Of a stretch of 64,000 nucleotides of DNA, positions 28,588 to 60,443 are shown piece by piece. The position numbers and the translations under genes were made by a program. Numbering within the stretch: the stretch's first letter is position 1; each line of letters starts with the position of its first letter. The notes below the pieces were generated by a model that was given only the letters and a program-made list of their open reading frames with translations, was not told the origin of the DNA and ran no database searches. Source of the stretch: a virus; the IMG/VR virus record IMGVR_UViG_3300027712_001108, positions 93,924 to 157,923 of that record; one strand, 5' to 3'.

Positions 28588-28645
28588 TATTCATATCATT
28601 GCTAAATATCTAGTACATGTTATCAAGTATCTGGAAATTCACACA

Positions 28646-31600
28646 ATGAAAATCAAAAATATCACATCGCGAATTAAGTTGGCAGAAGCACCTGGTACCG
28701 GACAAGCGACTCAGGTACGTCCTGCTACTAATGTGCCACGCGGTATGCGCAATTCTACAGGCAATGGTCCTAAAAAACCCACTAACTTTGCAGCAAACGA
28801 CAATATTGTTAAAAAAGCCGCTGACATGATTGGTAGTACAGGTGCATCAGCTGAAGAAATTGTAGCAAGTCCATGGTATGCAAGATGGTACGATACATTT
28901 GCAGATGGTGCAAAATTTGCGGGCAAAGGTGCCTGGAATGGTGTTAAGATTGCCGGTAAAGTTGCAAGCAAAGTTGCATTGCCATTGCTGGCGTGTGTGG
29001 CCATATATGACGGCTATACTCAAATAACTGCCATAGATAAAAATGATACCAATCGTAGAAATAAAATAATTGCTATAGTAACTAAACTTGTGGCAGATTA
29101 TGGATTTCCGGCAGTTGCAGGATATCTCGGTGCAATGGCAGGTGGTGCAGTTGGTGCATGGGTAGGCGGAGTAGGTGCGGCACCTGGTGCATTGATAGGA
29201 GGTATTGCCGGAGAAGCTGCTGCGTTTATTACACAATGGCAATATGGTGATAATATAGATCAAGCAATTGAAGATCTAGTAGATAATGTTCTTATGGATG
29301 CACCGCCATTGCGAAAAGCAACAGGTACATACACTGCACCGTATGATGTATCCAACGACGAACAAGGTGCACCGTTACCCTATGACGATATTGTGCCTAA
29401 TCCAATTGTCAATCCAAATTCGAATCCTGTTGTAGATCCTTCTACACCAGTTGTAACTAAACCTGCTGCTGTAACTGCATCACCCACTGCACAAAATACT
29501 GCTAAAAAACCTGAAAGTAAACCAAAAACTGCTGTAACACCAAGTGCTGCAAGTACTACTACAAGACCACCGACTGCTAAGTTGCCAGTTACAACATCTA
29601 CACCAACTGTGCCTCAAACTCCAAAGGTTACAATACCTAAAACTCCTACAACTGCAACACAGCCTAATTATGATGAGTTAACATTCAAGCAGGCATTTGC
29701 TCGTGCCAGAGAACGTGCAAGACAATTGTCACCTGATGATGCAGGCAAGTATACATTTACATGGCGTGGTAAACCATATCAAACAAATTACAAAGGCAGT
29801 GGCACTGCTGCCAGACCAAATGAGCCTTATATATCTCAGAAAAAGCAGCGCGGTATGATGAGTACTGCACCAATAAAAAATCCATACGAAAATCCAAAAA
29901 ACGAAAGCATGAATTTTGCTGTTGATGAAGGAGTGTTAGACGTACTTGGCAGACTTGGTACAGGTATCAAAGGGTTGTTTAAAGGCGGTAAAGCACTTAC
30001 CGCAGCAGAGAAAGCAGCAGCTGAAGCCGCCGAAGTCGCAGCAAAAGCTGCTAGAGCATTAGAGAAGACACTGTCTAACGGTAGGAAATATAGATACGAC
30101 GAACTTAAAAAAGTCTGGTATGATGTTGAAAAAGAAGCTACCATAGGTAAAAAAGCAGCACAAGTAAATTCTGCCAGTGTAGAAGGTCGTGAGCTATATG
30201 CTATACGATCTGCAAAAATAGATGCAGAGGCTGCGGCTTCGGCAGGTACCACTGCATCTAAAATTACACCAGAGGTTAAAGCATTATTACGCAAAAAGCC
30301 GCCAGAAAGTTGGACAGTTGCAGAACTTACAAGCTTGGGTCTTAAAATAGAGGATGTGCCATTTTTATCTGCTGCTAGATCAGTGGGGCTTGACATTGCT
30401 GCAACTGCTGACGAAATTGTCAAGGCGCCATGGTATAGTGCATGGAGCAAGCTTGTACATGTCACCGGAGTTGTTTCTAATAATCTATTAATGGCTGCAA
30501 TAAATGGTGCAGTGCCTGTATTTGAAGCAATTGGAAAACTACAACAACTTGATAAAAATGATCCAAATTATCAACGTAGACGAAACGAAATATGGGCAGA
30601 GTGTATTGCAAAAATTGGTGTACAGGCAACTGCTGCTATACTAGGTGCCGCAATTGCTCGTAAGTTAGTAGGTAAAGTCACAGCTAATAACAAAGCAAAA
30701 TGGGTAGCAACACTGGTTGGAGAGTTTGCAGGGTTGACTGCTGAACAAATTTTCATAGATCCAAGTATAGAATCTATAGTGCAAAAAGCCAGCGACGTTA
30801 TAACAGGAACTACAATACCCAGAGGGCAGGTGACTGATCCCACAACCGGTGAACCTCAGACAAACGCAGATGGCACACCTGCAAATTACGGCGATGTTAC
30901 AAATAATCCATTGTATAAGAAGGCATATAACTGGGCAGTAAAATCTGGATATACAGGTGATGGTCCTGCTAGATTTGCCATGATGATTTATAAACAAGGG
31001 CCAAATGGTCCTCTTGTTAATCAACTAAATGAAACTATTTTAGTTGGATGGCTCTACAAACAACTACAAGAGTCAACAGATGCACGACGCACTATTAACA
31101 TCCACAATAGTATTAGATCTATACTAGCAGAACGTACCAATGCCGATGCAATTGAACGTGTTGCATTCACATTGGTGGAATCTGGTATATTCAATGAAGA
31201 TGCCGATAGTGATAACTTTATGACCAATGTCACTGCTGCCATTGCAGCCAATACCAAAGGCGACAAAGTAGGCGCACAAAAAGCCCTTGATGCTGCAAAA
31301 TTGAATAACCCAGCCACAGGCACTGATCAAACCAATCAAAAGAAAATGCTGGATCAATTGACCAAAGCAAATCCCAGCCTGGCCGTACCCAATACCAATC
31401 CAAACTCTACTCAAAATCAAACACCAAATCCCAATGCCACACAGAGTAATGTTGAAGAAGCCGGCGGCATCGGCGGCGGCATGTCTGGTGGTGCAATACA
31501 CGGTCAGGCAGTTGGTGCTAATGCAACAGAAGTAATTCAAGCCTATAATGAATTTGCAGCACAATATCCCATTGCTAAATTCCTGCTAGATATTGCACCA

Positions 31601-33694
31601 ATAACTGGTACCGCAACAAGTATTATTGACGCATCGCAAGATCTTCGCGATGGCAAATATGGGCAGGCTGCATTAGATATGTTAGGTGCATTGCCTGGAT
31701 TTAAAATAGGCAAGTATCTGAGTCGTGGTTTGCAAAATGCAGTACATGCTATTAATAAAGGTGCACGAGCTGGCAATATAGGCAATGCCGCATCTAACCT
31801 GATTGGTAATACAATTGGATCTGCAAGTGAAAGCATTGCACCTAAGATGGGCGATCACGTCATGTTGGAATTGGCAGATGGTCGTATGATAGTTGCTCCT
31901 ATATCAGAGCTTCGCGGCAACAGTATGATTGTTACGCTGGATGAAACTGGACATCAATGGCTGGATGAAAGTCCAAGTCATGACGCACTTAAAATAGGTG
32001 ATGGCACACAGTCAATAAGCAGCACTGCACAGTTTTGGAACAGTATGATAGATACACTTGTGCATGATACTCCTTCAGGTTGGGCGCAGATGTTTGTCAA
32101 TTTGCAAAATACAACAGGTCATGCTGCAAGAACTATGCCAGCGCAATGGGCTAACATATGGAGACAACAACATATTGCACTGGGTGACGAAATTACTCGC
32201 GGTGATATGTTGACATGGGTAGACGAAGTTGAATCTGCAATAGACCGTAGCGGATTGACCGAATCATCACTGAATCCTGCAGGTGGTAGTAAACTGCGTG
32301 ACATGTTAGACAGCAAGGATGCTGCAATGCTGGCAGTTTGGATGTCTAGTCGTGCAGGTGGTAAAGGCATTAGTGTTGCAAAGTTTACCAAAGACAAAGC
32401 TGTACAGTGTGGATTGCCTGCCAATCATTGGTGGGGCAAAATCAAACACCTTGTAAACGAAACTGCTGATCCATATTCAATGGAAAAGCGTTACTACATT
32501 GTGCGTAAAACTTCATCCGCTGCACCTGTAGACGGCATCAGTGGATTCCATCGCAAGAGCCAAGCTGAGAAAAAGCTTGCCGCTATGAAGAATCCGGATC
32601 AGTATATGGTACGTGCAATAGACAGCACTAAACTGCCCAAAGATGAATTCGATGAAGCGGCAATACCTGGAATCAATACCAAAGACACACGCTACGACTA
32701 TTTTAAACATGGCAGATGGGTTATTATGGTCAGCAAGGAGCCGGTTCTGATGCCAGCACTAACTGGTCCTAATCCCAAGTACGTGGCCAAAGCAATACTA
32801 AGTGATGATCCGCGCAAGCAGCATATCAGTGTAGCAATGACACAGAATGGTGCGGTTGAAGCTGTGTCTAACAAGGCTATAGATGCCAATCGTGCTAGTT
32901 TAGATCCAAACGATTATGAAAACTACGTGATAGATTTTAACGTAGACTTCACTCGCGAATACATGGATCCAAAGACTGGACATTTCTTTAAGTTTACAAT
33001 TGGTGCAGATGGACAACCGCGACTAATCAGTGTAGGTCTAGAATGGTATCAAAAGTTTGGCACGGAGATGGATCAGTTGGGGTTCCGTCGTGCTAGCGAC
33101 AAGAGTTCGCGCAACATTGATACTCCTAATACCCCTACCTACAGCTTCCCAATAGGCAAGCCCATGGTCAAAAACTTGGGTCTCATACCAAACATGCGTT
33201 ACTCAGTTGAGTTAGAAAGCCAAGATGCCGATGGTAACGACGTGTTTATTATTAGCCCGCACAGCAGATATACAGGTGTGGGTACTCGCATGATGATGAG
33301 AACACCTGGCTTTATACTGGCTGCGGTGCCCAAGAATAAAACCGACACTCCCCCGAGCCAATATGTTAATGACATGCCTGGTCTTGCAAGTTCTGGACTT
33401 GACGAAGCAGAGTATAAAGGCAAAACTGTACCTCTTAGCAAACCCATACGTACCAGTCCCAGCGAAGGCGGCAAGTTCAAAGTCTATGTGAAAGATCCAA
33501 AAACTGGCAACATCAAAATGGTTCGCTTTGGTGATACAACTGGGCTCAGTATCAAGCGCGATGATCCCAAGCGCAGAAAAAACTATCGTGCTAGACATCA
33601 CTGCGAAAATCCAGGTCCTAAGACCAAAGCCAATTATTGGTCCTGTAAATTCTGGGCCAGTACACCTGTTAGTAAATTATTAAAGGGCAAATAA
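28646..33694 (+). CDS. large multidomain putative internal-head polyprotein (1682 aa)
   Basis: CTAAATA at 28602; many LxE linkers; internal duplication; pre-toxin-TG-like segment; C-terminal basic AEYKGK...RARHHC..YWSC domain. Confidence 0.75.
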   Translation: MKIKNITSRIKLAEAPGTGQATQVRPATNVPRGMRNSTGNGPKKPTNFAANDNIVKKAADMIGSTGASAEEIVASPWYARWYDTFADGAKFAGKGAWNGVKIAGKVASKVALPLLACVAIYDGYTQITAIDKNDTNRRNKIIAIVTKLVADYGFPAVAGYLGAMAGGAVGAWVGGVGAAPGALIGGIAGEAAAFITQWQYGDNIDQAIEDLVDNVLMDAPPLRKATGTYTAPYDVSNDEQGAPLPYDDIVPNPIVNPNSNPVVDPSTPVVTKPAAVTASPTAQNTAKKPESKPKTAVTPSAASTTTRPPTAKLPVTTSTPTVPQTPKVTIPKTPTTATQPNYDELTFKQAFARARERARQLSPDDAGKYTFTWRGKPYQTNYKGSGTAARPNEPYISQKKQRGMMSTAPIKNPYENPKNESMNFAVDEGVLDVLGRLGTGIKGLFKGGKALTAAEKAAAEAAEVAAKAARALEKTLSNGRKYRYDELKKVWYDVEKEATIGKKAAQVNSASVEGRELYAIRSAKIDAEAAASAGTTASKITPEVKALLRKKPPESWTVAELTSLGLKIEDVPFLSAARSVGLDIAATADEIVKAPWYSAWSKLVHVTGVVSNNLLMAAINGAVPVFEAIGKLQQLDKNDPNYQRRRNEIWAECIAKIGVQATAAILGAAIARKLVGKVTANNKAKWVATLVGEFAGLTAEQIFIDPSIESIVQKASDVITGTTIPRGQVTDPTTGEPQTNADGTPANYGDVTNNPLYKKAYNWAVKSGYTGDGPARFAMMIYKQGPNGPLVNQLNETILVGWLYKQLQESTDARRTINIHNSIRSILAERTNADAIERVAFTLVESGIFNEDADSDNFMTNVTAAIAANTKGDKVGAQKALDAAKLNNPATGTDQTNQKKMLDQLTKANPSLAVPNTNPNSTQNQTPNPNATQSNVEEAGGIGGGMSGGAIHGQAVGANATEVIQAYNEFAAQYPIAKFLLDIAPITGTATSIIDASQDLRDGKYGQAALDMLGALPGFKIGKYLSRGLQNAVHAINKGARAGNIGNAASNLIGNTIGSASESIAPKMGDHVMLELADGRMIVAPISELRGNSMIVTLDETGHQWLDESPSHDALKIGDGTQSISSTAQFWNSMIDTLVHDTPSGWAQMFVNLQNTTGHAARTMPAQWANIWRQQHIALGDEITRGDMLTWVDEVESAIDRSGLTESSLNPAGGSKLRDMLDSKDAAMLAVWMSSRAGGKGISVAKFTKDKAVQCGLPANHWWGKIKHLVNETADPYSMEKRYYIVRKTSSAAPVDGISGFHRKSQAEKKLAAMKNPDQYMVRAIDSTKLPKDEFDEAAIPGINTKDTRYDYFKHGRWVIMVSKEPVLMPALTGPNPKYVAKAILSDDPRKQHISVAMTQNGAVEAVSNKAIDANRASLDPNDYENYVIDFNVDFTREYMDPKTGHFFKFTIGADGQPRLISVGLEWYQKFGTEMDQLGFRRASDKSSRNIDTPNTPTYSFPIGKPMVKNLGLIPNMRYSVELESQDADGNDVFIISPHSRYTGVGTRMMMRTPGFILAAVPKNKTDTPPSQYVNDMPGLASSGLDEAEYKGKTVPLSKPIRTSPSEGGKFKVYVKDPKTGNIKMVRFGDTTGLSIKRDDPKRRKNYRARHHCENPGPKTKANYWSCKFWASTPVSKLLKGK

Positions 33695-34323
33695 TGTACT
33701 ATATCATTTATAAAATAACAAACCATATTAATGGACGTTATTACATAGGTCGTCATGCAACTGATAATTTAGATGATGGTTATATGGGTAGTGGTAAAGG
33801 TATAAAGAATGCCATTGCAAAGTATGGTCTTGATAATTTTACTAAAGATATCATTGCTACAGCAGAAACTGCCGTGGATCTATGGCAATTAGAAAAAGAT
33901 ATTGTTAACGAAACAGTAGTTAAAGATCCGTTATCTTATAATATGTCATATGGTGGAAAACATTATCTTGACGGTTTGAAAAAATATGACGAGCAAGCAT
34001 TTATTGAACATCAAAGACAAGCAGGATTGCGCGGCGGCAAAGTATCTATAGCTACTCGCAATTCAGCATGGCATGCAAAAGGCGGATCAGCATCTAGTCG
34101 TAAAAAAGCAGCACTATATAAGTATAAGCTTACTACATCATCTGGGGATGTATTTGATCTAGACGGTAATAGTCTTAAAGCAATGTGCAAAGAAAACAAT
34201 TGGAATTATGATACATTAATATGGACCAGGCATAAAGATCGACCAGTATTATCGGGCCCTCTTGCAGGATTCAGATTAGACCAAATAAGCAAGCCTGTGG
34301 GCAAAATACTCAAAGGCAAGTGA
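33694..34323 (+). mobile_element. GIY-YIG (Seg-like) homing endonuclease
   Basis: IIYKITNHINGRYYIGRH...YMGSG; its C-terminus duplicates that of the upstream gene. Confidence 0.85.
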
Positions 34324-35033
34324 TGCGCAGCAGCCAGTTTATAACAGACGCTGTTGCACCTCGTAATATAAATGCTGCAAGCGAAGAAGAACAGCTTGCC
34401 GCAGTTGCCGACGATTATGGTATAATACGTGACATTGATAATCCCAGTGAGGCAGTGCAGCTAGCAGCAATAAACGAATATCCAGGTTCTATAATAGCCA
34501 TAGACAATCCCACTGAGCGTGTTAAGATGGTGGCAATAGAAAACTCGCCACATCTTATCAAACACATACCAGACCCTAGCGAAGAATTGCAATTCGCAGC
34601 AGTTTCGCAAAACTACCGACTCATTCAACATATATACAGGCCTGCACCTGCTGTGCAACGTTATGTAGTAGAAGAAACGCCCGAGTACATACGTTACATT
34701 AACGCACCAACAGAAGAAGTTCAACTACTAGCAGTATCTGCATCTCCTTGGAATATACAAGATATATGGGAACCAACCGCAGCAGTACAAAAACTTGCAG
34801 TAATCAACAATGCTGCTACCATGTTAGAGATCAGATCTGATATTGATCGTGCAATATTCAATGACGGTAAAGTCAAACAATCTATCATACGATATATGTT
34901 GAAGCTGATAAAAGACTCTTATAAAGAACGTGTGGTACGATATATGAACATATTAGAATACTATGATGTCAAGTGGCCAGATTTAGATGTGATACGTGAC
35001 ACTGTGAACTCAATACCAGATGACGACTATTAA
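34323..35033 (+). CDS. ~23-aa tandem-repeat protein with C-terminal WPEL module
   Basis: Six (P)SE(A/E)VQLAAV-like repeats; ends VKWPDLDVIR. Confidence 0.75.
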   Translation: MRSSQFITDAVAPRNINAASEEEQLAAVADDYGIIRDIDNPSEAVQLAAINEYPGSIIAIDNPTERVKMVAIENSPHLIKHIPDPSEELQFAAVSQNYRLIQHIYRPAPAVQRYVVEETPEYIRYINAPTEEVQLLAVSASPWNIQDIWEPTAAVQKLAVINNAATMLEIRSDIDRAIFNDGKVKQSIIRYMLKLIKDSYKERVVRYMNILEYYDVKWPDLDVIRDTVNSIPDDDY

Positions 35034-35125
35034 TAGTAACATACAAAACCTGTATGTAACAACATGATCTATTAAGGACTGCTGTGTTGTGTAATTTCTT
35101 CCATAAATACCATGGGAGATTTGCA

Positions 35126-35590
35126 ATGAGACTAACAGACCTATACGGTGATCTTTTTGAGAACGCACCATCCATGGGCAAGATAGTGGCCGGATTGCCT
35201 CCCAGCTTTCAACATAGTATGCCTGCTACACATGCTTTTCCTGACATGGACAACTATTATGGATTTTATAGATTTGTTATAGCTATGGCAGGCGAATCGG
35301 GTGAACCGCACGAACCCGTCGATTATGAAATACCGTTACAAAGCAACATGCGAGACATACCCATTGCTGTTGCATATACAAAGCAAGAACACGAAATGAT
35401 ACACAGGACTGCCAGACGAATGGGCGCTAAACCAGATGAGCTTGCATATCATGGCAGTCAAGAACCACCTGACACATTTACAGTTAGTCCTGTTATAAAA
35501 TTTCAAATGAGTGAAGCTCAACAACGTAAGTTTAAAAGTCTATTGGCACTAAGCGAGGCAATGATTAATGCGTCTACTCGATCTGTTTGA
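35126..35590 (+). CDS. putative internal-head protein; paralog of the next gene's N-domain
   Basis: ATAAATA 35103; MRLTDLYGDLFE leader. Confidence 0.7.
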   Translation: MRLTDLYGDLFENAPSMGKIVAGLPPSFQHSMPATHAFPDMDNYYGFYRFVIAMAGESGEPHEPVDYEIPLQSNMRDIPIAVAYTKQEHEMIHRTARRMGAKPDELAYHGSQEPPDTFTVSPVIKFQMSEAQQRKFKSLLALSEAMINASTRSV

Positions 35591-37250: not shown

Positions 37251-37281
37251 CTAATGCTGCAACAGCACAATGGAGAGTAAC

Positions 37282-37443
37282 GTGAATTTATCCAATGCAG
37301 ATAAAGAACATATTGCTCGCATATTGTACGAAACTGTCAATCCTCATGGAAATTGGCTAACTGTATTACCAATGGAACGCCGCAATTGGATAGCAGGCGC
37401 TGTTAAATTGTATACGCTGGATTACACACCTCACGTTCGTTAA
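37282..37443 (+). CDS. small hypothetical protein (53 aa)
   Basis: GGAG SD plus GTG; hand-translated. Confidence 0.4.
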   Translation: MNLSNADKEHIARILYETVNPHGNWLTVLPMERRNWIAGAVKLYTLDYTPHVR

Positions 37444-37454
37444 TAAATATCTAC

Positions 37455-40703: not shown

Positions 40704-40716
40704 AGGGAAAACAAAG

Positions 40717-41361: not shown

Positions 41362-41362
41362 T

Positions 41363-43481: not shown

Positions 43482-43519
43482 ATTATTGATACTATCAAAA
43501 TAGCAGAGTAAAATTCACT

Positions 43520-44362: not shown

Positions 44363-44459
44363 CACCATACGTTGATGTCTTCAATGTGAATTTCTTTAAT
44401 AAATACTGATAGACATTTTCAGCTTAGCTGCACACCTCTAATAAGGTAACGTATATACT

Positions 44460-45626: not shown

Positions 45627-45639
45627 TCGTACTGCAACA

Positions 45640-45666
45640 CGCCCTTGTATTAGTTTACAAGGGCGT
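45640..45666 (+). terminator. hairpin, probable terminator
   Basis: CGCCCTTGTA-ttagtt-TACAAGGGCG. Confidence 0.55.
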
Positions 45667-45720
45667 TGTCATGACATCTATATAGCGATAAATATCTTGC
45701 AATAACACAGGTATTTTCAC

Positions 45721-46194
45721 ATGCGACACTTTATATCATTAATAGAAAACATCAATGCTGAAAATTATACAGTACCGCAAGATGTAATAGATGCAATTGG
45801 AGAAACTCTAGATAATGGTTCTGCGTGGAGTTTGGAAAATGTGTACAGTTTAATGGATGAGCTTGACGTACCTGAAGATGCTACAACAGAAGTGCTTAAA
45901 CGTCTGTTGCCGAATATAAAAAATTGGCTAGACCTGATGATAAATGAATATACGTTGGTCGGTGCAATGGACAGCATAATGTATCTAATTGATGAAGAAG
46001 GCCTGGAAGAATTCAAACCTATTTTAATACAAACCATAAAACAAAATAGAAGCAAAGTAATTAAAGGGTTGCTGCGAAACCTGCAAGAAAGCGTTATGGG
46101 TATTGAACACGTTATTGATTATCTGATGTCGCTGGGATTTGAATGGACTGAATTACAAACGATATACGATAGTGTTCATACAGGTAGAAATTAA
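45721..46194 (+). CDS. WPEL-module protein (1 unit)
   Basis: ATAAATA 45688; MRHFISLIE; GFEWTELQTIYDS. Confidence 0.75.
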   Translation: MRHFISLIENINAENYTVPQDVIDAIGETLDNGSAWSLENVYSLMDELDVPEDATTEVLKRLLPNIKNWLDLMINEYTLVGAMDSIMYLIDEEGLEEFKPILIQTIKQNRSKVIKGLLRNLQESVMGIEHVIDYLMSLGFEWTELQTIYDSVHTGRN

Positions 46195-46197
46195 TCA

Positions 46198-48036
46198 ATG
46201 TCCACTACAAATATAGATACCAGCATAGACAAACTGCGAGACAGATTAGAAGCTATTAAAACAGCTGGCGAATACTATAAACTTACCCCAATATTATCTC
46301 AAATTTCTAGAGTAATAGACAGTAGGCGTGACAACACCGAAACCAATTTATATCTGTTTGAAAAACTTGATCAACTGCTGTTGCATTACAAACCAATAAT
46401 TCTAGAGTGGTTAAACGATCAATTTGAGCATGCTATATATGGCGGACTTGAAGGTCTAGAAATTTTAAAAAATGACATTGGACTTGATTGGCCAGAGTTA
46501 GGCAACTGGATTAATACGCATAAGCATACATTCGTTAAACAGCTTGTTTTAGGTATGAAGCAAAATGATTTCCATTCAGTTATATCTGACATTGAAGAAT
46601 TGCGTAGATTAAATGTGACTTGGCCAGAATTGGATATTTTTGAAAAACCTGCTCGCGAAGAACAACAACGCATAGACTTTCGTTATGTAGGCGATGACAA
46701 CGACGCCGATGATTATATAGATGATCACGATTTGCATGAGGATGATAGCGTGTCTCCTAAAATTAAAAAAACAGTACAATATTTGTTGAATACTGGCCAT
46801 GTGGATGTGTTTGTACGGCAGTTGGAAGATCAAGGACTAGACGATTCTAGAATCGTAGAAGTATTGTCACCGCATGCAAAACAAATAGTAGATAAAATAA
46901 CTGAAAACAAAAGAATGCCGCCTTATGCAGTATACGAACTGATATTGCTTTTACAACTTGGTGCAAAATGGCCTGTGTTATTAGATGCAATCTCAAATAA
47001 CAAGCATGCAGTTATCAAATATCTGTTAACCGACTTTAAAGAGAATTATGCAGATGACATCATGCTAGACAGTTTGAATAAAGATCTTGAACGCTTGAAA
47101 TCATTTGGTATAAACTGGAAAGAACTGGAGATACTTGAAACCAGCGTTGTCGATCAATTAAAAGATCGCGGGCTATACGATGATCGTACTCCATTGGCAG
47201 AAGCACAGCCTGTAATACCACCTAAAATAGTAAAACAGTTTGAACGTGAATACAGCAATATTCACCTGCGCGGTGTTACTGCTATATGGGAAACAGTGGT
47301 ACACTTGAAAGACATAGGTGCAACTGATCAACAAATTGCATCGCTGCTATCAGAACGTCGCGAGCAAGTTGCACAGGTAATTAGAAACAGCTTGCACAAT
47401 GAATCTCCTAAAAGTTTCAATCCCATTAACGAGGCCATGTACGCCATATACGAATTGCTAAGTGTAGGTATTAAATGGCCTTTGCTGTTACAGCTACTAG
47501 ACCGCTATAAAGACAAAGTCACAGCCTGGGCAATTGCAGGCGCTACTGATAGTCACTTTGGTTCAATTATTGCAGACAGATTAGTTGCCTTTGAAAAACT
47601 GGGATTTGACACTGCTGATATTAGACAGGAATTAAAAGCCAATGTATCGCCTGATTTATTAAAATCTCTATATAGGCAAGGGTTCGGTTGGCACGTACAA
47701 AATAAAATACAAACACTTGCTAAATTAAATCTCCTACCAATTGAATTCAATGACAGAGACATAGATGATATTTTATCTGTATTCATGGACTATGTTGCCA
47801 ATTACAGAATGTCTAAAGATGCATATAATGCATTGGTCGAGTTAATACCGCACGACATTGCTAAAATAAAACAGACGTTTGAGAAAAACAAAGCAACTAT
47901 AGTAAAATCCCTGCTTAAAAGCATAAAATCGCAATATTCACAGTCTATAGTAGACACATTGCATATACTACACAAGTTGAATATTAAATGGCCAGAAATG
48001 TCTGTTATTACAACTAGTCTGAAAGCAGGCAGATAA
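46198..48036 (+). CDS. WPEL-module repeat protein (6 motifs, 3 predicted units)
   Basis: WPEL, WPEL, WPVL, WKEL, WPLL, WPEM; LHE and LAE linkers. Confidence 0.8.
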   Translation: MSTTNIDTSIDKLRDRLEAIKTAGEYYKLTPILSQISRVIDSRRDNTETNLYLFEKLDQLLLHYKPIILEWLNDQFEHAIYGGLEGLEILKNDIGLDWPELGNWINTHKHTFVKQLVLGMKQNDFHSVISDIEELRRLNVTWPELDIFEKPAREEQQRIDFRYVGDDNDADDYIDDHDLHEDDSVSPKIKKTVQYLLNTGHVDVFVRQLEDQGLDDSRIVEVLSPHAKQIVDKITENKRMPPYAVYELILLLQLGAKWPVLLDAISNNKHAVIKYLLTDFKENYADDIMLDSLNKDLERLKSFGINWKELEILETSVVDQLKDRGLYDDRTPLAEAQPVIPPKIVKQFEREYSNIHLRGVTAIWETVVHLKDIGATDQQIASLLSERREQVAQVIRNSLHNESPKSFNPINEAMYAIYELLSVGIKWPLLLQLLDRYKDKVTAWAIAGATDSHFGSIIADRLVAFEKLGFDTADIRQELKANVSPDLLKSLYRQGFGWHVQNKIQTLAKLNLLPIEFNDRDIDDILSVFMDYVANYRMSKDAYNALVELIPHDIAKIKQTFEKNKATIVKSLLKSIKSQYSQSIVDTLHILHKLNIKWPEMSVITTSLKAGR

Positions 48037-49670
48037 TGCAGTATTATAATGAAGAAATATACAGATCACTGATAGAGGCTGTACGTCAGCGCCAGTACAA
48101 AGAAGTACCGTTTAAATTACGTAGACTTGGTGAAAATACAGAACCTTTTACACCTAGAAGCGGTATTGATCTGCTTAATAAAAACAAAACTGGCTGCATT
48201 CGTGGTATATTGTACATATATAAAAATCAAGATGATTATGGGTTAACCAACAATGATTTCCAAAATGCAGTAAAAGGTGCACGTAAAATAGGATTGGCCT
48301 GGCCTGAATTGGATATACTTGAAAACAGTATTGGCACTGATACAGTCACCGAAGCTGCAAAACAACTCACCGGTGACGACATAGCCAAAGATATCGAAGA
48401 CATATTCAGCGACACCGATTCAGGTTTTAGTTCTTCTAAACGTATGATATTGCAACGTCTGATATTATCCTATTCCGCATTGTTAGATGCAGTTAAAATA
48501 AAAGACATATCCAGCATAACAGCAGCGTTGACTAGATTAAAGCAACGTATTCTTCGAGACATGCTGTCTAATATGCAGCATGGCGATACCAAGGTGGATA
48601 TGCCCATTTATATTAAAACACTACAGCAGTTTGGTATCAATTGGCCGGAGTTATCTATTATAAACGACAGCACAGATAAAAAACTCAAAGAAACGCTGCG
48701 CATACATCCTCGGGATCCCAGAGATCGTATGCTGGATAGATTAGAAGACATATTCACTGATCCCGGCACAGATGTATTTGACCGAATCACTGAATTGGAT
48801 ATAGCCAGATCCATTTTACAACGTATCAGTCAAGACGATGTTGATGCAATATTGGCAAACTATAAAACCCACATTATAAAAGATACATTGAAACATTTGA
48901 TGCATGGTGCAGTAGATGTTGATGTACCTATCTTTTTAAGAACACTGCAAGGACTGGGTGCAAACTGGCGTGAATTAGACATAATCGAAAAAAGTGTTGG
49001 CGGCAATAGCCCGCAGTTGGATGAAGCACCCCGTACATCCGATGAAATAATTCGTGACGAATTTGACTATAATATATTTTATGGCATTGCAGCATTGCGC
49101 ATTTATAGCCGTCAACTTGCAGAATTTCCCGAATATGAACAGCTAGTGAATACACATAAAGCCAAGCTGATACGCTTGCTGTTGGAGTTGTGCAAAGACA
49201 ACGAGTTCGGTGTGGCCAAATTCAGAGCAGAGGATTTGCAAACTGCGGGTGTAGATTGGCCAGAGTTGGACATCATTATAGACAGCGCCACACATGAACT
49301 TGACAAGTTCTTTGGCATTGACTCAGCAGACCAGCTAGCAGAAGGAATTAGTCATGCTGCCAGATATAACATGAGTGGTGCGCTATCTAGCATAGAAGAC
49401 GACGAACCACGCGAAATGGTATTGTTTTTAAGCAATGCTGCATATGAAGATTCGTTGCCAACTATTGCTAAAAAACTGGCTCCACATAAACAGTTTATTG
49501 TACGAGCATTGCTGGACTTTTTAAGAGATGAAGAAGATGCAGCAGAGTCAGTTGATACTGTTAGGGATTGCCTAACAGTATTGGATAAAATAGGATTCTC
49601 CAGCCCAGAATTGTCTATACTACGAAATAGTTTAAACGTACCAAGCAAAGGTGATCAAAATGGCCAATGA
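48036..49670 (+). CDS. WPEL-module repeat protein (5 units of ~110 aa)
   Basis: Each unit ends G-h-x-WPEL-x-II-x-x-S; the first four are followed by VTE/LKE/LDE/LAE. Confidence 0.8.
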   Translation: MQYYNEEIYRSLIEAVRQRQYKEVPFKLRRLGENTEPFTPRSGIDLLNKNKTGCIRGILYIYKNQDDYGLTNNDFQNAVKGARKIGLAWPELDILENSIGTDTVTEAAKQLTGDDIAKDIEDIFSDTDSGFSSSKRMILQRLILSYSALLDAVKIKDISSITAALTRLKQRILRDMLSNMQHGDTKVDMPIYIKTLQQFGINWPELSIINDSTDKKLKETLRIHPRDPRDRMLDRLEDIFTDPGTDVFDRITELDIARSILQRISQDDVDAILANYKTHIIKDTLKHLMHGAVDVDVPIFLRTLQGLGANWRELDIIEKSVGGNSPQLDEAPRTSDEIIRDEFDYNIFYGIAALRIYSRQLAEFPEYEQLVNTHKAKLIRLLLELCKDNEFGVAKFRAEDLQTAGVDWPELDIIIDSATHELDKFFGIDSADQLAEGISHAARYNMSGALSSIEDDEPREMVLFLSNAAYEDSLPTIAKKLAPHKQFIVRALLDFLRDEEDAAESVDTVRDCLTVLDKIGFSSPELSILRNSLNVPSKGDQNGQ

Positions 49671-50844
49671 TGCAGATCAATTAATTGCCAGCCGAGTTGC
49701 AGGCATAATGATGAATGAACCACTGGCACTAAGAGCATTGATTCACCGACTAGAAACACCACCCTATGAATGGCCAGCAGACGATATATTAGCAGTGGTA
49801 CAAGATCACAAGACTGCTATTTTAAAATACATAGATAGAAAATTCAGGGTAGGTAATATATCATTGCCCATCAATGACATTAAAAAACTAATACACATTG
49901 ATGCGCCATGGCCAGAATTAAAAGACATGGTCATCAAATACAAATTTTCTATTGTAAAAAAACTGTTAGAGATGCTGCGAGCCGGCGATCATAGAACAGC
50001 TACAGATCCAATTAACACACTAACGTCGTTAAACATGCGCTGGCCGGAACTTGTTGTTATGCAAAAGAGTATAGATGAAAGAAATAAACAGCTACGCGAA
50101 TCATACACATTAGATGACCACGAAATGGCACAATACAAAGCTGATTTATTGTCTGACATCCACGGCAAGCATTATATTGCAGTATTAGATGCTGTACCCG
50201 ATATTACACAGTATACAAATTTAGGCAATGTAGATCGTATAACTCGCACATTGGAAGAACATAAACACGGTATAATGCGTGCATTGTTAGAAATGATAAA
50301 ATTGGGCAGCAGTAACGAATTGTCATTGTATGGCCCTACTCTTTTAAATGGATTTGCGAAACTGGGAATTGACTGGCCTGACCTTGACGTAATACGAACA
50401 TCAATTGCCAAGACTCCGCTGAAAGAGTTGAGTGAAAATCGCGACCATGCCAAATGGATAGCAGATGAATATAAAGACAGCATAATAATAGGTGTTTTGC
50501 GAAACGACATGGATTTGCTATTGCAATCACTGGCAGAATTCGGATGGACAGATTCTCAAGATAGAGGCGATGTCACAGATTTAACTACGCTTATGACGAA
50601 TCACAAGCAGAGAATAATGAAAGGCATACGCGAGTACATGCTGGAGTTGGACTCGGACGGCATATGCTACATTATGCCTCAAATATTAGATGGATTAGAT
50701 AATGCTGGTATAAAGTGGCCGGATTTACAAGTACTTGGCCAGAGCGTTGACCTTATACAACAAGAAAAAGACGAAGACAATGTAGAGTTGAATGAACGCC
50801 GAAAGTCTGTAAATAACATAACGTACAGGAATCCCAGGGCATGA
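49660..50844 (+). CDS. WPEL-module repeat protein (3 units)
   Basis: WPEL, WPEL, WPDL, WPDL; LRE/LSE/LNE linkers. Confidence 0.8.
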   Translation: MANDADQLIASRVAGIMMNEPLALRALIHRLETPPYEWPADDILAVVQDHKTAILKYIDRKFRVGNISLPINDIKKLIHIDAPWPELKDMVIKYKFSIVKKLLEMLRAGDHRTATDPINTLTSLNMRWPELVVMQKSIDERNKQLRESYTLDDHEMAQYKADLLSDIHGKHYIAVLDAVPDITQYTNLGNVDRITRTLEEHKHGIMRALLEMIKLGSSNELSLYGPTLLNGFAKLGIDWPDLDVIRTSIAKTPLKELSENRDHAKWIADEYKDSIIIGVLRNDMDLLLQSLAEFGWTDSQDRGDVTDLTTLMTNHKQRIMKGIREYMLELDSDGICYIMPQILDGLDNAGIKWPDLQVLGQSVDLIQQEKDEDNVELNERRKSVNNITYRNPRA

Positions 50845-52490
50845 TACCACGTGAAATCAGATACACTCTGACAATGTTCTACGAGGACATTGAGCAGGGT
50901 AGTTATATCGACGCTGTGGAGTGTCTAAATGAATTGTACCACTATAAGGTATATGAAACTGCTGAACGCAATAGAATCAATGCAGCATTGGTAGCCCATA
51001 AAAATGGTATCGTGAAACGACTGCTGCGCTATATGCGACGTTATCCATCAGATGAAGTTGCACACTTTATACCCAATACCATTGATGCATTGCGAGCATT
51101 TGATATTGATTGGCCTGATTTAAACGTTATTGCACGGTCTGTACCTAAAACGAAACCAGTGGCAGAAGCACTGGCATCGCCGCTGGGTAATATTGTATTT
51201 GGCATGCAAAATGCACTGCGACAGGGCAACGACCGTGTGGTAGCACACCGCGTAATTGATCTATGGCGTGGTAGTACATTGGAAAAACAGCGTGCAAGCG
51301 ACATGCTAGCAGATGTTGATAATTTGGTATTGAGTTATATAGAACGTCAGCTTGGATCTGATGATATGTTTGCAGTACAAGATGGATTAAATCTTGTACA
51401 AGTATTACCGCCGTCAGAAGACTGGGCAGATATAACAACGCTTCTCAACAAATACAAAAAAAACATAATAAAGTATTTGTTAAAATGCATGCAACATGGA
51501 GAATTTGATATCGTAGAATATCGCGTACCCATGTTACATGAATGGGGTATACACTGGCCCGACTTGGAAGTTTTAAAAATCAGTGCAGATGAAATGGAAC
51601 AGAACGACAGCAATGATTCCCAGCTGGATGAAGCAGATAGCCGCGCTGACTTTTCAACTGTGCATAGAAACAGATCAGACGCAGACGGCGGTCATAGATT
51701 TCTATTAAATGCAGATGAGTATGTGGAACATATCAGAGCTCTATTGCAAAATGGATATAAAAATAATGAAGCGGTGTCAGAGTTGTCCACTGTTGGCCGT
51801 AGACGCCGGGGCGCCATCAAAGACTGGCCTGAATTAGCTGCGGTAATCAACGAATATAAAAAACCATTATTAGATATTATATTGTTGCATTTTAATAAAG
51901 AACATTTCAGTCATCGACTTTTGGATTTTGCAGGTGCATTATACGCTATCGGGGTCCATTGGCCTGAAATTAAACCCATGATAGAAAAAAACAAATATAA
52001 GATCATGCAGATATTGCGTGGACTAATCGAAGACGAATCTGACATAGAGTTTATAGAATCTCAAATACATGCATTAAAAAGTTACGGTATTAAATGGCCT
52101 GATTTAGACATCATCGCCAAAAGTATTGCGCCCGATGATTTAGCAGAGGACGAAGATCAAGCAGCCGCGGTGCCAGACAATTCTATACGTTCAATGATAA
52201 TGGATATGCTAGAACGCGATGGGCTGGGTATTGCATTATATCATATAGAAGAATGGAATCTTGATGTTGAAAAGTTTCCAGAATTAGTAGACTTTCTTAA
52301 CAAGCGCAAACATCAATATATGAAAATCTTGATAAATGATCTAAAAGATGGACGCGACTGGAAGTATGGCGCAGTTGAACAATATCTAAGACGTCTAGAA
52401 AAGTCAAAAATAAATTGGCCCGAATTATCAATCATACGCGACAGCTTAAATACAGTACAACAGCAGGAAGACGATACCAATGACAATTGA
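50841..52490 (+). CDS. WPEL-module repeat protein (6 motifs, 4 units)
   Basis: WPDL x3, WPEL x2, WPEI; VAE/LDE/LAE linkers. Confidence 0.8.
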   Translation: MIPREIRYTLTMFYEDIEQGSYIDAVECLNELYHYKVYETAERNRINAALVAHKNGIVKRLLRYMRRYPSDEVAHFIPNTIDALRAFDIDWPDLNVIARSVPKTKPVAEALASPLGNIVFGMQNALRQGNDRVVAHRVIDLWRGSTLEKQRASDMLADVDNLVLSYIERQLGSDDMFAVQDGLNLVQVLPPSEDWADITTLLNKYKKNIIKYLLKCMQHGEFDIVEYRVPMLHEWGIHWPDLEVLKISADEMEQNDSNDSQLDEADSRADFSTVHRNRSDADGGHRFLLNADEYVEHIRALLQNGYKNNEAVSELSTVGRRRRGAIKDWPELAAVINEYKKPLLDIILLHFNKEHFSHRLLDFAGALYAIGVHWPEIKPMIEKNKYKIMQILRGLIEDESDIEFIESQIHALKSYGIKWPDLDIIAKSIAPDDLAEDEDQAAAVPDNSIRSMIMDMLERDGLGIALYHIEEWNLDVEKFPELVDFLNKRKHQYMKILINDLKDGRDWKYGAVEQYLRRLEKSKINWPELSIIRDSLNTVQQQEDDTNDN

Positions 52491-53721
52491 CCATTTGGAT
52501 TTATTAGAAGACCTTGGCAATCTTGCACAGCTCAATGCAGGTCCGCTGATAAATGTGCTTAAACAATATCCCGGACCTAGTGGTATTGGTCACGTCGAGA
52601 AGGCATTTCACCGAGAATGGGATATGGCAATTGGCAGTAACAGTCCTATACTTGATATCGGCAATCTCAAAGATGGTATAAAGACGCTTCGCAAAGCATT
52701 TAAAACACACGAAGCTGCTGCGGCATTTGTAGTATACATTGGCGGCAAAGCTGCTATGTTTGGCACAACAGACAGTTATACACTTGCTGGCGGTTCACGC
52801 GAAGGCAGATTAGCATATGATTTAAGACCCTGGGAAGCTGCTGTAAAAGCTGCACATGAACGAGAACATGGAACCAAGCCGTCTTGGTCAAGACCCAGTA
52901 CGCCCGCTCTCAGTACTGCTAAAGATGTAGAGTCGCGCAATTACAGTCATCCTGAAGACAAGTGGAATAACCCAGTAATGGTTACCAGACACTATGCAGG
53001 CGACATGGTCAGTACCGGTACGCTGTCTGGATTGTTTACTATTATGCAGAATATTGCTAAAGACACCGGAGAGCCTCTCACAGGCAAGCTGGTACTGCGC
53101 GATATGAAAGCCAGAGAAACTAGACGTGCAAGGCAGTTAACTAGACAAGAAATTAATGCTGGGGTGAAAGATCTCAAAACTAGATTGGCGATTTATAAGA
53201 ACAGCAAAAAGCCCAGTGTCGATACTGTTGAAGATTTCATTGCAATGAGTCTTAATAAGCCAGGTAGTATTGTACAGTTTGCAGGACGCCCATATCGACT
53301 AACTGCTAGCACCTACGACAAAATTGATCCGTTGAGTTTGTTAAAAGGCAAATCATTTACCACCAGGTATGCAACCAACGAACCTGGTGGGTATAATAGT
53401 ATGGAGTTGACATACAGGTTTGATGCAGATACTAACCAACTGTTACCTATATCAGCAACGTGGAGCGATAACACTGATCCTAATAAACCACGTAGTCAAA
53501 CAGCAGTGCTGGATCCCAAGGGTTATCTACAAAACGCATTGGGTATTAAAAAGCTAGAAAAGCCATATGTTATACCTAAACTATTGGAAAAAATAAAAAA
53601 CCAGCAATTCAAAGATGCATTACTGTATGCAACTGCATTGGAAAAATTAGGAATAGAATGGCCTGAAATCTCGCTTATCAAAGACAGTGCGCAACACGAA
53701 GTTGATTTAAAAAATAAATGA
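52480..53721 (+). CDS. hypothetical protein with single C-terminal WPEL module
   Basis: N-terminal LDLLE; ends LGIEWPEISLIKDS. Confidence 0.75.
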   Translation: MTIDHLDLLEDLGNLAQLNAGPLINVLKQYPGPSGIGHVEKAFHREWDMAIGSNSPILDIGNLKDGIKTLRKAFKTHEAAAAFVVYIGGKAAMFGTTDSYTLAGGSREGRLAYDLRPWEAAVKAAHEREHGTKPSWSRPSTPALSTAKDVESRNYSHPEDKWNNPVMVTRHYAGDMVSTGTLSGLFTIMQNIAKDTGEPLTGKLVLRDMKARETRRARQLTRQEINAGVKDLKTRLAIYKNSKKPSVDTVEDFIAMSLNKPGSIVQFAGRPYRLTASTYDKIDPLSLLKGKSFTTRYATNEPGGYNSMELTYRFDADTNQLLPISATWSDNTDPNKPRSQTAVLDPKGYLQNALGIKKLEKPYVIPKLLEKIKNQQFKDALLYATALEKLGIEWPEISLIKDSAQHEVDLKNK

Positions 53722-54131
53722 AATCCAGTGAATTCATAAACAAATCTATCAGGGATATTACAACAGACGTTGTGGCTATGTCGGTGAGCATTGGTAACTC
53801 TGTAACGGAATCTGATATAAGTCCTGAACTGTTATCACGTATGAGCAAGGCAGTTAAAAGCAAATTCTCAAAAGGCGATTATGCAGACGCACTTCGCTAC
53901 ATGGGCGATTACGGATTAACATATGCAGCAGCACCAAGTGAATTACAAGACCTTATCAACAGTAGACGAATGCAGATCATCAAAGATCTACTTGATATTG
54001 CAAGACATAATCCAGATGCATGGCGTGTATATAGATTGATGTCCTATGTAAAACTAGTAGAACTAGGTTGGCCTGAAATTGACACACTGTTCAACAGTGC
54101 CAAAGCTGCAAAAGAAGACGAGCGCATTTAA
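53718..54131 (+). CDS. WPEL-module protein (1 unit)
   Basis: MKSSEFI leader, VTE site, LGWPEIDTLFNS. Confidence 0.75.
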   Translation: MKSSEFINKSIRDITTDVVAMSVSIGNSVTESDISPELLSRMSKAVKSKFSKGDYADALRYMGDYGLTYAAAPSELQDLINSRRMQIIKDLLDIARHNPDAWRVYRLMSYVKLVELGWPEIDTLFNSAKAAKEDERI

Positions 54132-54138
54132 ATACAAT

Positions 54139-54717
54139 ATGTTTACAGAATCCGCACCCCTTACAGCAGATGGTAGTTTTGCTAAAAGCCTAAGCTACAG
54201 CAAGCTATGGATGTGTCTTGAACTAAAACGCCTAATGAGCGAATTAAACATCAAGCAATTCAATGTGGTATATAGTCTTGGTAGTTGGTACGGTAACATG
54301 GGTATATTCATGTTGTTTACGCATGTGCCATTCAAAGTACTAGTAGATGTTGATACAGATCCGGAACCATTAAAAGCCAGTCATATCATACTTAAACAGC
54401 TAGCACCCGACCGAAAAATAATAAGCATGTGCAAAGATGCCAACAAGCTGCAATACATAGTTGGTCAACCCAGTTTGGTAATCAATAACAGCACAAACAA
54501 CATGGCAAACCGCGGATGGCTAGAGCATGTGCCAGCTGGCACAGTTGTTGCAATTCAAGGTCGCAGTGACGAACCAGATAACAATTACAACACCTGCAAA
54601 ACCATAGACGATTTTGATAAACAATATCCATTACGAGATGTACAATTTTTAGGGCAAATGTCATTGAAAGATCCCGGTGACAAATACCAACGTTGGATGA
54701 AGATAGGTATAAAATGA
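54139..54717 (+). CDS. SAM-dependent methyltransferase-like protein
   Basis: SLGSWYG motif-I-like, VDVD, LVINNS; TTAAATA upstream. Confidence 0.6.
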   Translation: MFTESAPLTADGSFAKSLSYSKLWMCLELKRLMSELNIKQFNVVYSLGSWYGNMGIFMLFTHVPFKVLVDVDTDPEPLKASHIILKQLAPDRKIISMCKDANKLQYIVGQPSLVINNSTNNMANRGWLEHVPAGTVVAIQGRSDEPDNNYNTCKTIDDFDKQYPLRDVQFLGQMSLKDPGDKYQRWMKIGIK

Positions 54718-60398: not shown

Positions 60399-60443
60399 TT
60401 TAGCAGCATAAATATCTCACATTACTCAACGTGAGATATTAAC

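Follow-up and report, generated by a model that had tools for sequence, protein, structure and literature searches.

A late-type gene block of a giant T4-core phage encodes tagged chains of modules that are candidate head-internal cargo

The DNA analysed here, called the window in what follows, is a stretch of 64,000 nucleotides at the end of a linear IMG/VR fragment of 157,923 bp (IMGVR_UViG_3300027712_001108); the whole fragment is referred to as the contig, and its completeness is about 30% according to CheckV. The subject of this study is a block of genes at 28646-54131 of the window. All genes of the block are located on the plus strand and mostly abut or overlap. A preliminary description of this DNA had proposed that the region 28646-54717 encodes polyproteins in which a single N-terminal leader packages a string of unrelated domains in the phage head, to be released by the prohead protease at Φ-x-E sites (Φ, hydrophobic residue) and injected with the DNA. 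The proposed start of the block is right, and its end is at 54131, not at 54717. Three genes of the region, 33694-34323 (a homing endonuclease), 43520-44362 and 54139-54717, have no cargo-type features.

Gene content and lineage of the block

The source phage is a roughly 500-kb jumbo phage with a T4-type core. Its DNA polymerase (56240-59005 of the window) shares 49-51% identity with the enzymes of Sinorhizobium phage Phosso and Agrobacterium phage Atu_ph07, which have genomes of roughly 470-490 kb, and 40-44% with the polymerases of further T4-core jumbo phages, for example Vibrio 2.275.O, Serratia BF and Salicola SCTP-2. At the DNA level, 50,697 phage records searched by megablast with a 12-kb part of the block gave no match. 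Through one of the block proteins we located a complete relative among the uncultivated viral genomes of IMG/VR, called G001 here (518,643 bp, terminal repeats, 100% complete), of which the DNA polymerase is 87% identical to that of the window phage. G001 encodes a prohead protease of the S77 (gp21) type (407489-408133, minus strand; PF03420, E 9e-26), adjoined by genes for the scaffold, the major capsid protein (MCP) and the portal. The block is syntenic with G001; the flanking genes are 77-90% identical, whereas the block proteins are mostly 28-65% identical and differently fused. By this comparison of sequences the block appears to be a hypervariable, fast-evolving late-gene locus.

All-against-all BLAST within the contig indicated that the block proteins are mosaics, and revealed a recurring module, here called WPEL, of about 55 residues that is predicted to be helical and ends in W-P-E-L-x-x-I-x-x-S. 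Pfam and PHROGs recognised few of the modules: a cytidylyltransferase, a zincin-like HExxH domain, a weak GNAT match, DUF6321, DUF6934, phrog_7595 and a GIY-YIG endonuclease. When ten predicted fragments were compared to Pfam at E≤1, the additional matches were limited to a weak GNAT, DUF6934 and DUF6943, and phmmer found no match for three polyproteins among the PDB sequences. Beyond small modules the block proteins have no homologues in the phage collection. In the sequences below a slash marks the position following the Glu of a Φ-x-E motif.

The first gene (28646-33694) encodes a polyprotein of 1682 amino acids (aa) with the leader MKIKNITSRIKLAE/A and two glycine-zipper or membrane-like regions. 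An internal module of this protein, behind FDE/A, occurs elsewhere as a stand-alone gene, and a basic 85-aa phrog_7595 module follows LDE/A at the C-terminus. At the 3' end of the gene lies the GIY-YIG homing endonuclease (33694-34323; phrog_314, E 8e-36), an intruder and not cargo. The last nine codons of the endonuclease open reading frame (ORF), …PVGKILKGK, correspond to the native polyprotein C-terminus in relatives (…KPVGKILKGK in L029, …KPVGQVLKGK in G001), and the interrupted host gene ends in a diverged copy, …PVSKLLKGK (33660-33694, with the endonuclease end at 34290-34323). From these duplicated ends, the endonuclease insertion seems to have given its target a replacement 3' end and to have captured the original end in frame.

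The next gene (34323-35033) encodes a 236-aa protein with DUF4116-like repeats and a C-terminal WPEL; its N-terminus, MRSSQFITD, has Asp in place of Glu. It is followed by a 154-aa protein (35126-35590) that carries the leader MRLTDLYGDLFE/N and a widespread N-domain of about 110 aa. This protein is paralogous in its N-domain to the product of the following gene (35568-37250), to which it is fused in some metagenomic homologues. The latter is a 560-aa polyprotein in which the leader MRLLDLFE/E and the N-domain are followed by MSE/H, LFE/S and a cytidylyltransferase (PF01467), then by LSE/S, the zincin-like HExxH domain (a weak, generic metallo-protease match, phrog_87, E 1.6e-5), IAE/H, a beta mini-domain, VNE/E and a basic C-terminal module. 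The 1082-aa polyprotein at 37455-40703 has the leader MKIINIIPNTQSIFE/A and about nine modules, among them the weak GNAT match and three WPEL copies; G001 encodes one of its modules as a gene of its own with a leader, and LDE/K is followed by a basic tail, CSNPKGFSQ.

Three smaller leader-bearing products come next. The 214-aa protein (40717-41361) has the leader MKISDL…VNE/S, the joints LTE/S and LYE/S, and a basic C-terminal DUF6321 domain (PF19846, E 7e-22). The 243-aa protein (41363-42094) starts with MKINELVIE/A, and its first module is internal to a big polyprotein of G001, where it follows FDE/E. The 473-aa polyprotein (42060-43481) combines the leader MRILLTINE/V and a DUF6934 domain with the joints VTE/T, VTE/N, VTE/N and TNE/A, the last of which is VTE/A in G001; its ParB-like region was read from the sequence by eye and has no significant family match. 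The 280-aa gene product at 43520-44362 is 78% identical to that of G001, has no leader, no WPEL and no Pfam or PHROG match, and is probably not cargo.

The remainder of the block is dominated by WPEL. A 388-aa protein (44460-45626) consists of the leader MRLLDIFE/S, a conserved body of 300 aa and a C-terminal WPEL that is not found in the G001 orthologue. A 157-aa protein (45721-46194) has a WPEL cap and the leader MRHFISLIE/N, which is of the same type as that of a G001 gene located beside the MCP gene (MRNFISIVE/A). Four WPEL-array proteins (46198-48036, 48036-49670, 49660-50844 and 50841-52490) contain 19 WPEL modules in total; for the one starting at 48036, an exact peptide-word search of viral contigs gave no relative. 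The 413-aa protein (52480-53721) has the leader MTIDHLDLLE/D, a 340-aa body and a WPEL cap, and is fused inside an 890-aa protein in G001. The last product (137 aa, 53718-54131) carries a WPEL cap and a degenerate leader, MKSSEFINK. An outlying gene (60409-61415 including its promoter-like element, plus strand, start codon at 60444) has the leader MLRIKFFE/A.

Several chains end in small, very basic modules behind a Glu joint: phrog_7595 (33404-33694), the VWDxPNPVKKHK…NMVDNIWAA tail (36963-37250), the KYKxSINCSNPKGFSQ tail (40608-40703) and DUF6321 (41100-41361). Such modules also occur as stand-alone small genes or directly behind leaders in pelagiphages, roseophages and many metagenomic phages, and a role in binding the packaged DNA is conceivable.

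Leaders, joints, shuffled modules and upstream elements

Leaders were defined loosely as M[KR]Φ with the first Φ-x-E completed by residue 17. Such a leader is present in 9 of the 19 block ORFs and in 5 of the 178 other ORFs of the contig (Fisher p 1.4e-7). The products starting at 48036, 50841 and 52480 have Φ-x-E leaders that lack K/R at position 2. The strict 8-mer leader occurs four times in the contig proteome of 48,222 residues, each time at an N-terminus; the strict 8-residue expression taken from Atu_ph07 catches only 2 of the 19 block ORFs (p 0.047), since the leaders here range from 8 to 17 residues in length. Two of the N-termini listed in the preliminary description have no Glu site: MRSSQFI is followed by an Asp and MKSSEFI by a Lys at the corresponding position. 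The G001 homologue of the latter starts with MKANEFINE and does have the Glu.

Leader-type N-termini are also found on proteins of the head module. In G001 these are the MCP (MSKNLFE), the scaffold (MTNKIEELLE) and the MRNFISIVE protein encoded beside the MCP gene; in Atu_ph07 they are the MCP (MSKLFE) and, beside the protease, gp205 (MDFRQIRALLE), gp206 (MSIRKFLNIINE) and gp213 (MKSELHKALTLLINE). The capsid targeting sequence (CTS) of phage T4 is MKTYQEFIAE (PMC8442874), of which residues 4 and 7 serve for targeting and residues 8 and 10 for processing, cutting being blocked by an Asp at position 10 (PMC9026906). The Glu-specific signal in the block agrees with this rule. A family of four paralogues of about 200 aa (38-47% identical) is encoded outside the block at 26282-26854 of the window (minus strand) and at 5073-5681, 5681-6283 and 6287-7006 of the genome (plus strand). 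Three members bear cargo-type leaders (MRINELTGY, MQLRDLFE and MRLQQLFLNE), the copy in the window starts with MLIAELKG and the G001 homologue with MKLNDLFE; the family is probably further cargo.

Within the chains, the motif [ILVF]-x-E-[SAGTND] is present 72 times in the block as compared to 43.7 expected from shuffled sequences (z 4.8), and 175 times versus 160 expected in the other 136 contig proteins (z 1.2). With Asp or Gln instead of Glu at P1, the motif is not in excess in the block or in the other proteins. The enrichment in the block versus other genes, a comparison that the preliminary description had suggested, is specific for Glu. The motifs are also conserved. The pair of hydrophobic P3 and P1 Glu is kept in the G001 orthologues at 30 of 51 sites, versus 10 of 39 for the Asp control, and in four polyproteins at 20 of 24 sites, often within linkers that are otherwise unalignable. 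In the array protein 49660-50844, E147 and E259 are invariant in 13 orthologues (42-100% identity) despite indels in the surrounding linker, and in the 560-aa protein E8, M119 and E121 are invariant across 18 homologues.

Structure prediction suggests that these sites tend to lie in linkers. An AlphaFold (AF2) model of the 560-aa protein, built from an 18-sequence alignment, has a predicted TM-score (pTM) of 0.37; the local confidence score pLDDT is below 50 at residues 1-16, 57-72, 108-135, 332-341, 463-465 and 503-527. These segments comprise 18% of the residues and contain 6 of the 11 Φ-x-E motifs (p 0.005), while a seventh, E466, abuts such a segment. The model of the array protein 49660-50844 is all-helical (pTM 0.36). 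Its two invariant sites coincide with drops in pLDDT, to 58 at residues 141-150 and to below 50 at residues 250-260, and 4 of the 12 motifs fall in the 10% of residues with low pLDDT (p 0.03). In both models the motif is enriched in predicted linkers as compared to folded cores, a comparison that the preliminary description had also suggested.

Independent evidence on the joints comes from gene fusion and fission. Some gene boundaries of the window phage or of G001 correspond to positions within a protein of the other phage, and such internal positions have a Φ-x-E motif that aligns with the leader end of the counterpart; six such cases were counted. The internal NNLIAE/VGPAIDN of the window phage corresponds to the G001 gene start MKLDDIFE/AGPKIDN, and the internal DHDLHE/DD… to the start MQIQSLME/AKN. 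Conversely, the starts MTIDHLDLLE/DLGNL and MKINELVIE/AVKQRLDPKCW correspond to internal positions in G001, …MKIDEVEQLDE/DLGNL and RRQFDE/ESQRLDPKCW, respectively. In a fifth case the internal KDEFDE/AAIPG matches the start of a stand-alone paralogue on the same contig (MRINEILNE/AETPK) and a gene start in G001 (MRYNEIIAE/AEVPQ).

The same correspondence is found on a larger scale among metagenomic proteins. A search of 5.8 billion proteins gave 153 homologues of the 560-aa protein, which recombine its domains with chitinase, 5'-nucleotidase (NT5C), deaminase, HD, DUF6321 and other domains. Of the listed homologues, 118 start with Met, and 68 of these have an N-terminal leader of up to 12 residues that is free of Pro and Gly and ends in Φ-x-E. 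When the leader ends of 57 homologues are projected on the 560-aa protein, they cluster at residue 8 (26 proteins), residues 134-137 (19) and residues 336-347 (11), and the latter two clusters coincide with the internal joints E134 and E338, to which the leader ends of 31 metagenomic homologues were assigned. In other homologues a leader is lacking and this domain begins at residue 2-4. Since the same domain thus occurs both with and without a leader, the tag is a portable add-on outside the fold. The internal joints are positionally equivalent to leader ends in homologues, a point that goes beyond the preliminary description. By conservation, predicted structure, and breakpoints both between the two phages and at scale, the joints are more than linker composition.

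The block contains about 28 copies of WPEL, distributed over the four array proteins (46198-52490) and seven others, mostly as a C-terminal cap. Each non-tandem copy in the array proteins is followed by Φ-x-E within 5-28 residues or by the C-terminus within 3-30 residues. For the block as a whole, 19 of the 22 non-tandem copies have Φ-x-E or the C-terminus within 18 residues, the median distance being 8 as compared to 46 for random positions (p 2e-7). A profile built from 19 copies was searched against 1.84 billion proteins (E≤1e-3) and gave 549 representative proteins, which are as long as about 2,000 residues and contain up to 16 copies. Among the best 149 of these 549, Φ-x-E follows within 18 residues for 88% of the 527 internal modules, versus 24% for random positions (p 2e-113), and the Asp control gives 15% versus 24%; in the same best 149 proteins, 86% end with the module and 45 start with a leader. 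WPEL has no Pfam or PHROG name, and Foldseek comparison of the array model to the PDB gave only generic helical-repeat matches, none with E≤1e-3. No WPEL copy or WPEL-array protein was found in Atu_ph07. Judged from these sequences, WPEL seems to cap nearly every predicted product, which is the most original feature of the analysis.

The element TAAATA(T/C) is located 5-54 nt upstream of the starts at 28646, 35126, 37455, 44460, 45721 and 60444, and G001 carries it at orthologous positions. All copies are on the plus strand. The first (28603-28608, context GCTAAATATCTAG) lies 37 nt upstream of the first gene and has an orthologous site in G001; that at 35104-35109 precedes the start at 35126 by 16 nt; that at 37444-37449 is just 5 nt from the ATG at 37455, a spacing identical in the G001 orthologue; that at 44400-44405 is 54 nt upstream of 44460; that at 45689-45694 heads the contiguous genes 45721-54131; and the outlying gene has TAAATATC at 60409-60414. 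The G001 genome contains 92 matches to TAAATAT, of which 53 are intergenic as compared to 6.4 expected (8-fold enrichment), and 51 matches lie at most 80 nt upstream of a start on the same strand, among them the starts of genes for the prohead protease, the portal and several tail-sized proteins. Counted over the whole genome, TAAATA, ATAAATA and TATAAATA are no more frequent than expected, so that position alone is informative. From its intergenic enrichment and its placement before head genes, TAAATAT would behave like a late promoter of the T4 type, with the block wired like the head genes; the late promoters proposed earlier find a sequence correlate here, as the element precedes both the transcription units of the block and the head genes of G001. 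The spacing between TAAATAT and the start codon in G001 is bimodal: it amounts to 3-6 nt for 11 genes, and most of the others have 13-33 nt. Examples of short spacing are 37444-37457 and 54129-54141 of the window and, in G001, 63568, 151119, 203367, 221435 and others. If TAAATAT is a -10-like late element, the class with 3-6 nt would give leaderless or near-leaderless mRNAs with no room for a Shine-Dalgarno sequence.

Leader and virion membership in Atu_ph07

The virion proteome of Atu_ph07, determined by electrospray ionization tandem mass spectrometry, comprises 131 proteins, 78% of which have no assigned function (PMC6102473, Table S5). We mapped the entries of that table to ORFs by exact molecular weight, which gave 114 unique assignments, 21 with more than one candidate and 5 with none. 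ORFs starting with M[KRQ][WLIFYM]xx[LIVF]xE correspond to virion proteins in 21 of 23 cases, versus 108 of 787 for the other ORFs (odds ratio 66, p 8e-16); in this count gp381, a further leader ORF that fell outside the position tolerance, is taken as undetected, and the 21 include one spurious hit, at an internal Met of ribonucleotide reductase. Inspection of Atu_ph07 had led us to include W at position 3 of the pattern; without it, 8 or 9 of 10 ORFs are virion proteins, at a base rate of 14-18%. The leader is thus a predictor of virion membership in Atu_ph07, for proteins that differ from those of the block, and this result, too, goes beyond what had been proposed earlier.

The leader-bearing proteins of Atu_ph07 include ten paralogues of 29-31 kDa, gp54-gp62 and gp408, which all start with M[KR]W.QL.E and were all detected in virions. 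Their genes are located at 43318-49507 (gp54-gp62, in tandem) and 304780-305556 (gp408). They are listed only as hypothetical virion proteins in PMC6102473 and would be the Atu_ph07 counterpart of a cargo family. The leader-bearing gp53 has a predicted mass of 87 kDa, and its peptides were most abundant in a gel band of about 20 kDa; gp63, gp482 and gp594 also migrate well below their predicted masses. Such low migration is what processing at multiple sites would produce. A comparison of predicted gp53 fragment sizes with the gel band gave no convincing match; only the migration far below 87 kDa stands. Neither leaders nor cleavage are mentioned in PMC6102473.

Other genes of the contig have features of a different kind. 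A Cys-rich protein of about 400 aa with the N-terminal pattern C…PW…C…CC has at least 10 paralogues (21-29% identical), mostly in one minus-strand array; they are found at 1584-2762 of the window (plus strand) and at 34756-49518 (minus strand), 76766-77851 and 88809-89978 of the genome, and look like an expansion of the radical-SAM/SPASM type. The N-termini of the products of 18712-19803, 22989-24044 and 24856-26238 resemble MetK (S-adenosylmethionine synthetase), a nicotinamide mononucleotide adenylyltransferase-like protein and nicotinamide phosphoribosyltransferase, respectively. The annotation of Atu_ph07 has a nicotinate phosphoribosyltransferase in a comparable neighbourhood.

Proposed function and relation to known systems

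We consider it probable that the block encodes head-internal cargo, in the form of tagged, late-expressed chains of modules that are cut by the S77 protease and delivered with the DNA. The anatomy which the preliminary description proposed, with a portable tag, Glu joints, shuffled modules and late genes, passes all computational tests that were run, and to that extent the earlier interpretation is partly supported. By analogy with T4 and in view of the virion data on Atu_ph07, the amphipathic tag, M-[KR]-Φ-x-x-Φ-(x)-x-E, would dock each protein on the scaffolding core during prohead assembly. The S77 (gp21-type) protease would then cut after the Glu of Φ-x-E, thereby removing the tag and, in the long proteins, separating the modules at the equivalent internal joints, a step to which motif statistics, site conservation, linker location and the fusion and fission breakpoints point. 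The products would comprise three groups, namely enzymes (cytidylyltransferase, zincin-like, the weak GNAT match), basic modules of small size, and numerous helical units that end in WPEL. The precedent of the T4 internal proteins and Alt, together with the fast evolution of the locus, suggests that they would stay in the head, exit with the DNA and act early against host defences or on host metabolism. With about 17 genes and 8,400 residues, the number of predicted products is of the order of 50.

Several observations weigh against this interpretation. The block of the window phage and of G001 is known from sequence alone, and the link to virions comes from different proteins in Atu_ph07. In a tblastn search with all contig proteins, almost no block protein has a homologue in that phage, the matches being limited to DUF4116-like repeats and one DUF6934 piece; the one shared family is represented by gp219 (DUF4116-like, the homologue of the 34323 gene), which is absent from the virion list. 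Leaders are not uniform either: array protein 46198 has none, that of 49660 is poor, with Pro at P1', and K/R is missing from position 2 in the remaining arrays. The Φ-x-E motif is short and common, with about 1.4 copies per 100 aa even in unrelated genes, so that individual cut sites cannot be called with confidence, and the model of the array protein puts E147 where a predicted helix ends, not in a clearly disordered loop. To call the modules "effectors" is to assume a role, since no function can be assigned to most of them. The protease (PF03420) and capsid (PF07068) families were not found in the contig; since this is a fragment of about 30% completeness, their absence is uninformative on the whole phage.

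A part of the locus, above all the WPEL arrays, could instead be core, scaffold or inner-body material for a very large head, which is packaged and cleaved and of which the pieces are expelled or organise the DNA, in analogy to gp22/gp67/gp68 of T4 or the inner body of phiKZ. Being all-helical and acidic (pI 4.9-5.5), with repeated cut motifs, the arrays resemble a multiply cut scaffold; family searches found no enzymatic signature in them, and in T4 it is the core proteins that are cut to small peptides, the internal proteins being cut once (PMC8442874, PMC9958956). We nevertheless regard this explanation as unlikely. Array orthologues are only 32-50% identical and differ in copy number, in phages whose DNA polymerases are 87% identical, which is atypical of essential structural parts. 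In addition, the WPEL cap is found on non-repeat bodies as well (44460, 52480, 37455), and Atu_ph07 makes a comparable head without any WPEL module.

The block proteins also resemble the polyvalent proteins described by Iyer, Burroughs, Anand, de Souza and Aravind in 2017, which are multidomain enzyme mosaics (NTase, GNAT, zincin, ParB-like) predicted to be packaged and injected, with domains shuffled as in an arms race (PMC5512222). At least two unrelated effector-type domains in one phage polypeptide, a feature of that class, are present in the 560-aa protein with its cytidylyltransferase, zincin-like and basic modules. If the block proteins were polyvalent proteins that stay unprocessed or are self-cut by the embedded zincin-like peptidase, Φ-x-E would reflect linker composition and the similar N-termini paralogue ancestry. 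The HExxH domain of the 560-aa protein fits such a scheme, as self-processing via MPTase domains was proposed for polyvalent proteins (PMC5512222), and so does the paralogy of the leader-bearing neighbours 35126 and 35568. This explanation is, however, an improbable one: the peptidase-like domain is present in only one of about 17 proteins, the signal is specific for Glu and absent for Asp and Gln, leaders stand directly on unrelated domains in dozens of homologues and align with internal joints, and the motif fits both the T4 gp21 rule and the capsid-protein and scaffold N-termini of the lineage itself. The polyvalent model involves self-processing and no address tag, unlike the block with its prohead-protease-type joints and CTS-like leader, and none of the signature domains of polyvalent proteins (MuF, ART, SNF2 helicase, DNA methylase, MPTase-PolyVal) is found in the block at E≤0.01. 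By analogy, the embedded zincin could contribute to processing.

That the proteins are not virion-associated at all, and act in the cytoplasm as late or host-takeover proteins with an N-terminal motif that serves translation efficiency, localisation or turnover, would suit the indirect nature of the packaging case for this phage, the frequency of A-rich codons after the ATG in highly expressed genes and the failure to detect gp219 in Atu_ph07 virions, but it is very improbable given that the leader is almost exclusive to virion proteins in Atu_ph07, that the promoter element is common to head genes and that the leader type recurs on head-module proteins beside the protease and capsid genes.

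For head-internal cargo, the reading we prefer, the closest precedents are IPI, IPII, IPIII and Alt of T4. These share with the block an N-terminal tag of about 10 residues ending in Φ-x-E, late expression (as predicted for the block) and a gp21/S77-type protease in the lineage. Processing in T4 depends on P3 and P1, and sites with Asp at P1 are uncut (PMC9026906); behind the conserved tag the cargo is diverse and fast-evolving (PMC3012670). The T4 cargo consists of single small proteins that are cut once (Alt at both ends), whereas the block, which covers about 26 kb, encodes many chains of 400-1700 residues with internal joints, and T4 has no counterpart of the C-terminal WPEL cap. No Pfam or PHROG match relates the block proteins to internal head proteins or Alt.

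The giant phages phiKZ, 201phi2-1 and SPN3US are comparable in having tens of internal head proteins that are cut after Glu by S77-family proteases, in many cases at more than one site in a protein, and that commonly form paralogue families (PMC10052503, PMC5694885). Their proteases prefer a small P3 (A/S/G-x-E) and remove long propeptides; the block has a hydrophobic P3 as in T4 and tags of 8-15 residues, and its pieces between joints look like independent modules. No homology of block proteins to the inner-body families of phiKZ-like phages was detected. The Dar proteins of phage P1 likewise are large anti-defence proteins that reside in the head and are delivered with the DNA, some of them processed, as is proposed for the block. 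They belong to another phage lineage and follow a different incorporation hierarchy, with no Φ-x-E joint grammar, no comparable module shuffling and no homology found to the block. A capsid targeting sequence is reportedly mentioned in a P1 paper. Proteolytic processing of the P1 protein DdrB is discussed in PMC5512222.

The loading of anti-defence cargo via the T4 CTS (PMC3012670, PMC9026906), polyvalent proteins (PMC5512222) and multi-site processing in phiKZ-like giants (PMC10052503) are thus established. New are the combination of CTS-type tags with equivalent internal joints around swappable modules, the large scale, and the WPEL cap. No description of modular cargo with tag and joints was found in the open-access literature on CTS and jumbo phages and on polyvalent proteins and prohead proteases. 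It is possible, though this is a tentative extension, that a cargo grammar is common to T4-core jumbo phages, in which an address tag is combined with Glu joints that allow modules to be fused, split and swapped while delivery is kept, and with WPEL as a second signal. The latter might hold the pieces in an inner-body-like matrix, tethered to each other, to DNA or to the shell, or it might guide them out through the tail.

The N-terminal tag offers a rule for which proteins of a giant phage are packed, where none was available before, and the same tag and joints organise related metagenomic proteins, as found for the 153 homologues of the 560-aa polyprotein and the 549 WPEL protein clusters. 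The CTS concept is extended from single small proteins to multi-module polyproteins, the idea of polyvalent proteins is linked to a concrete processing enzyme, and the payload content and evolution of giant phages become testable by N-terminomics. If such a general cargo grammar exists, the packaged proteome of uncultured giant phages could be predictable from sequence alone, and tag, joint and cap would together be a natural toolkit with which to load payloads of several proteins.

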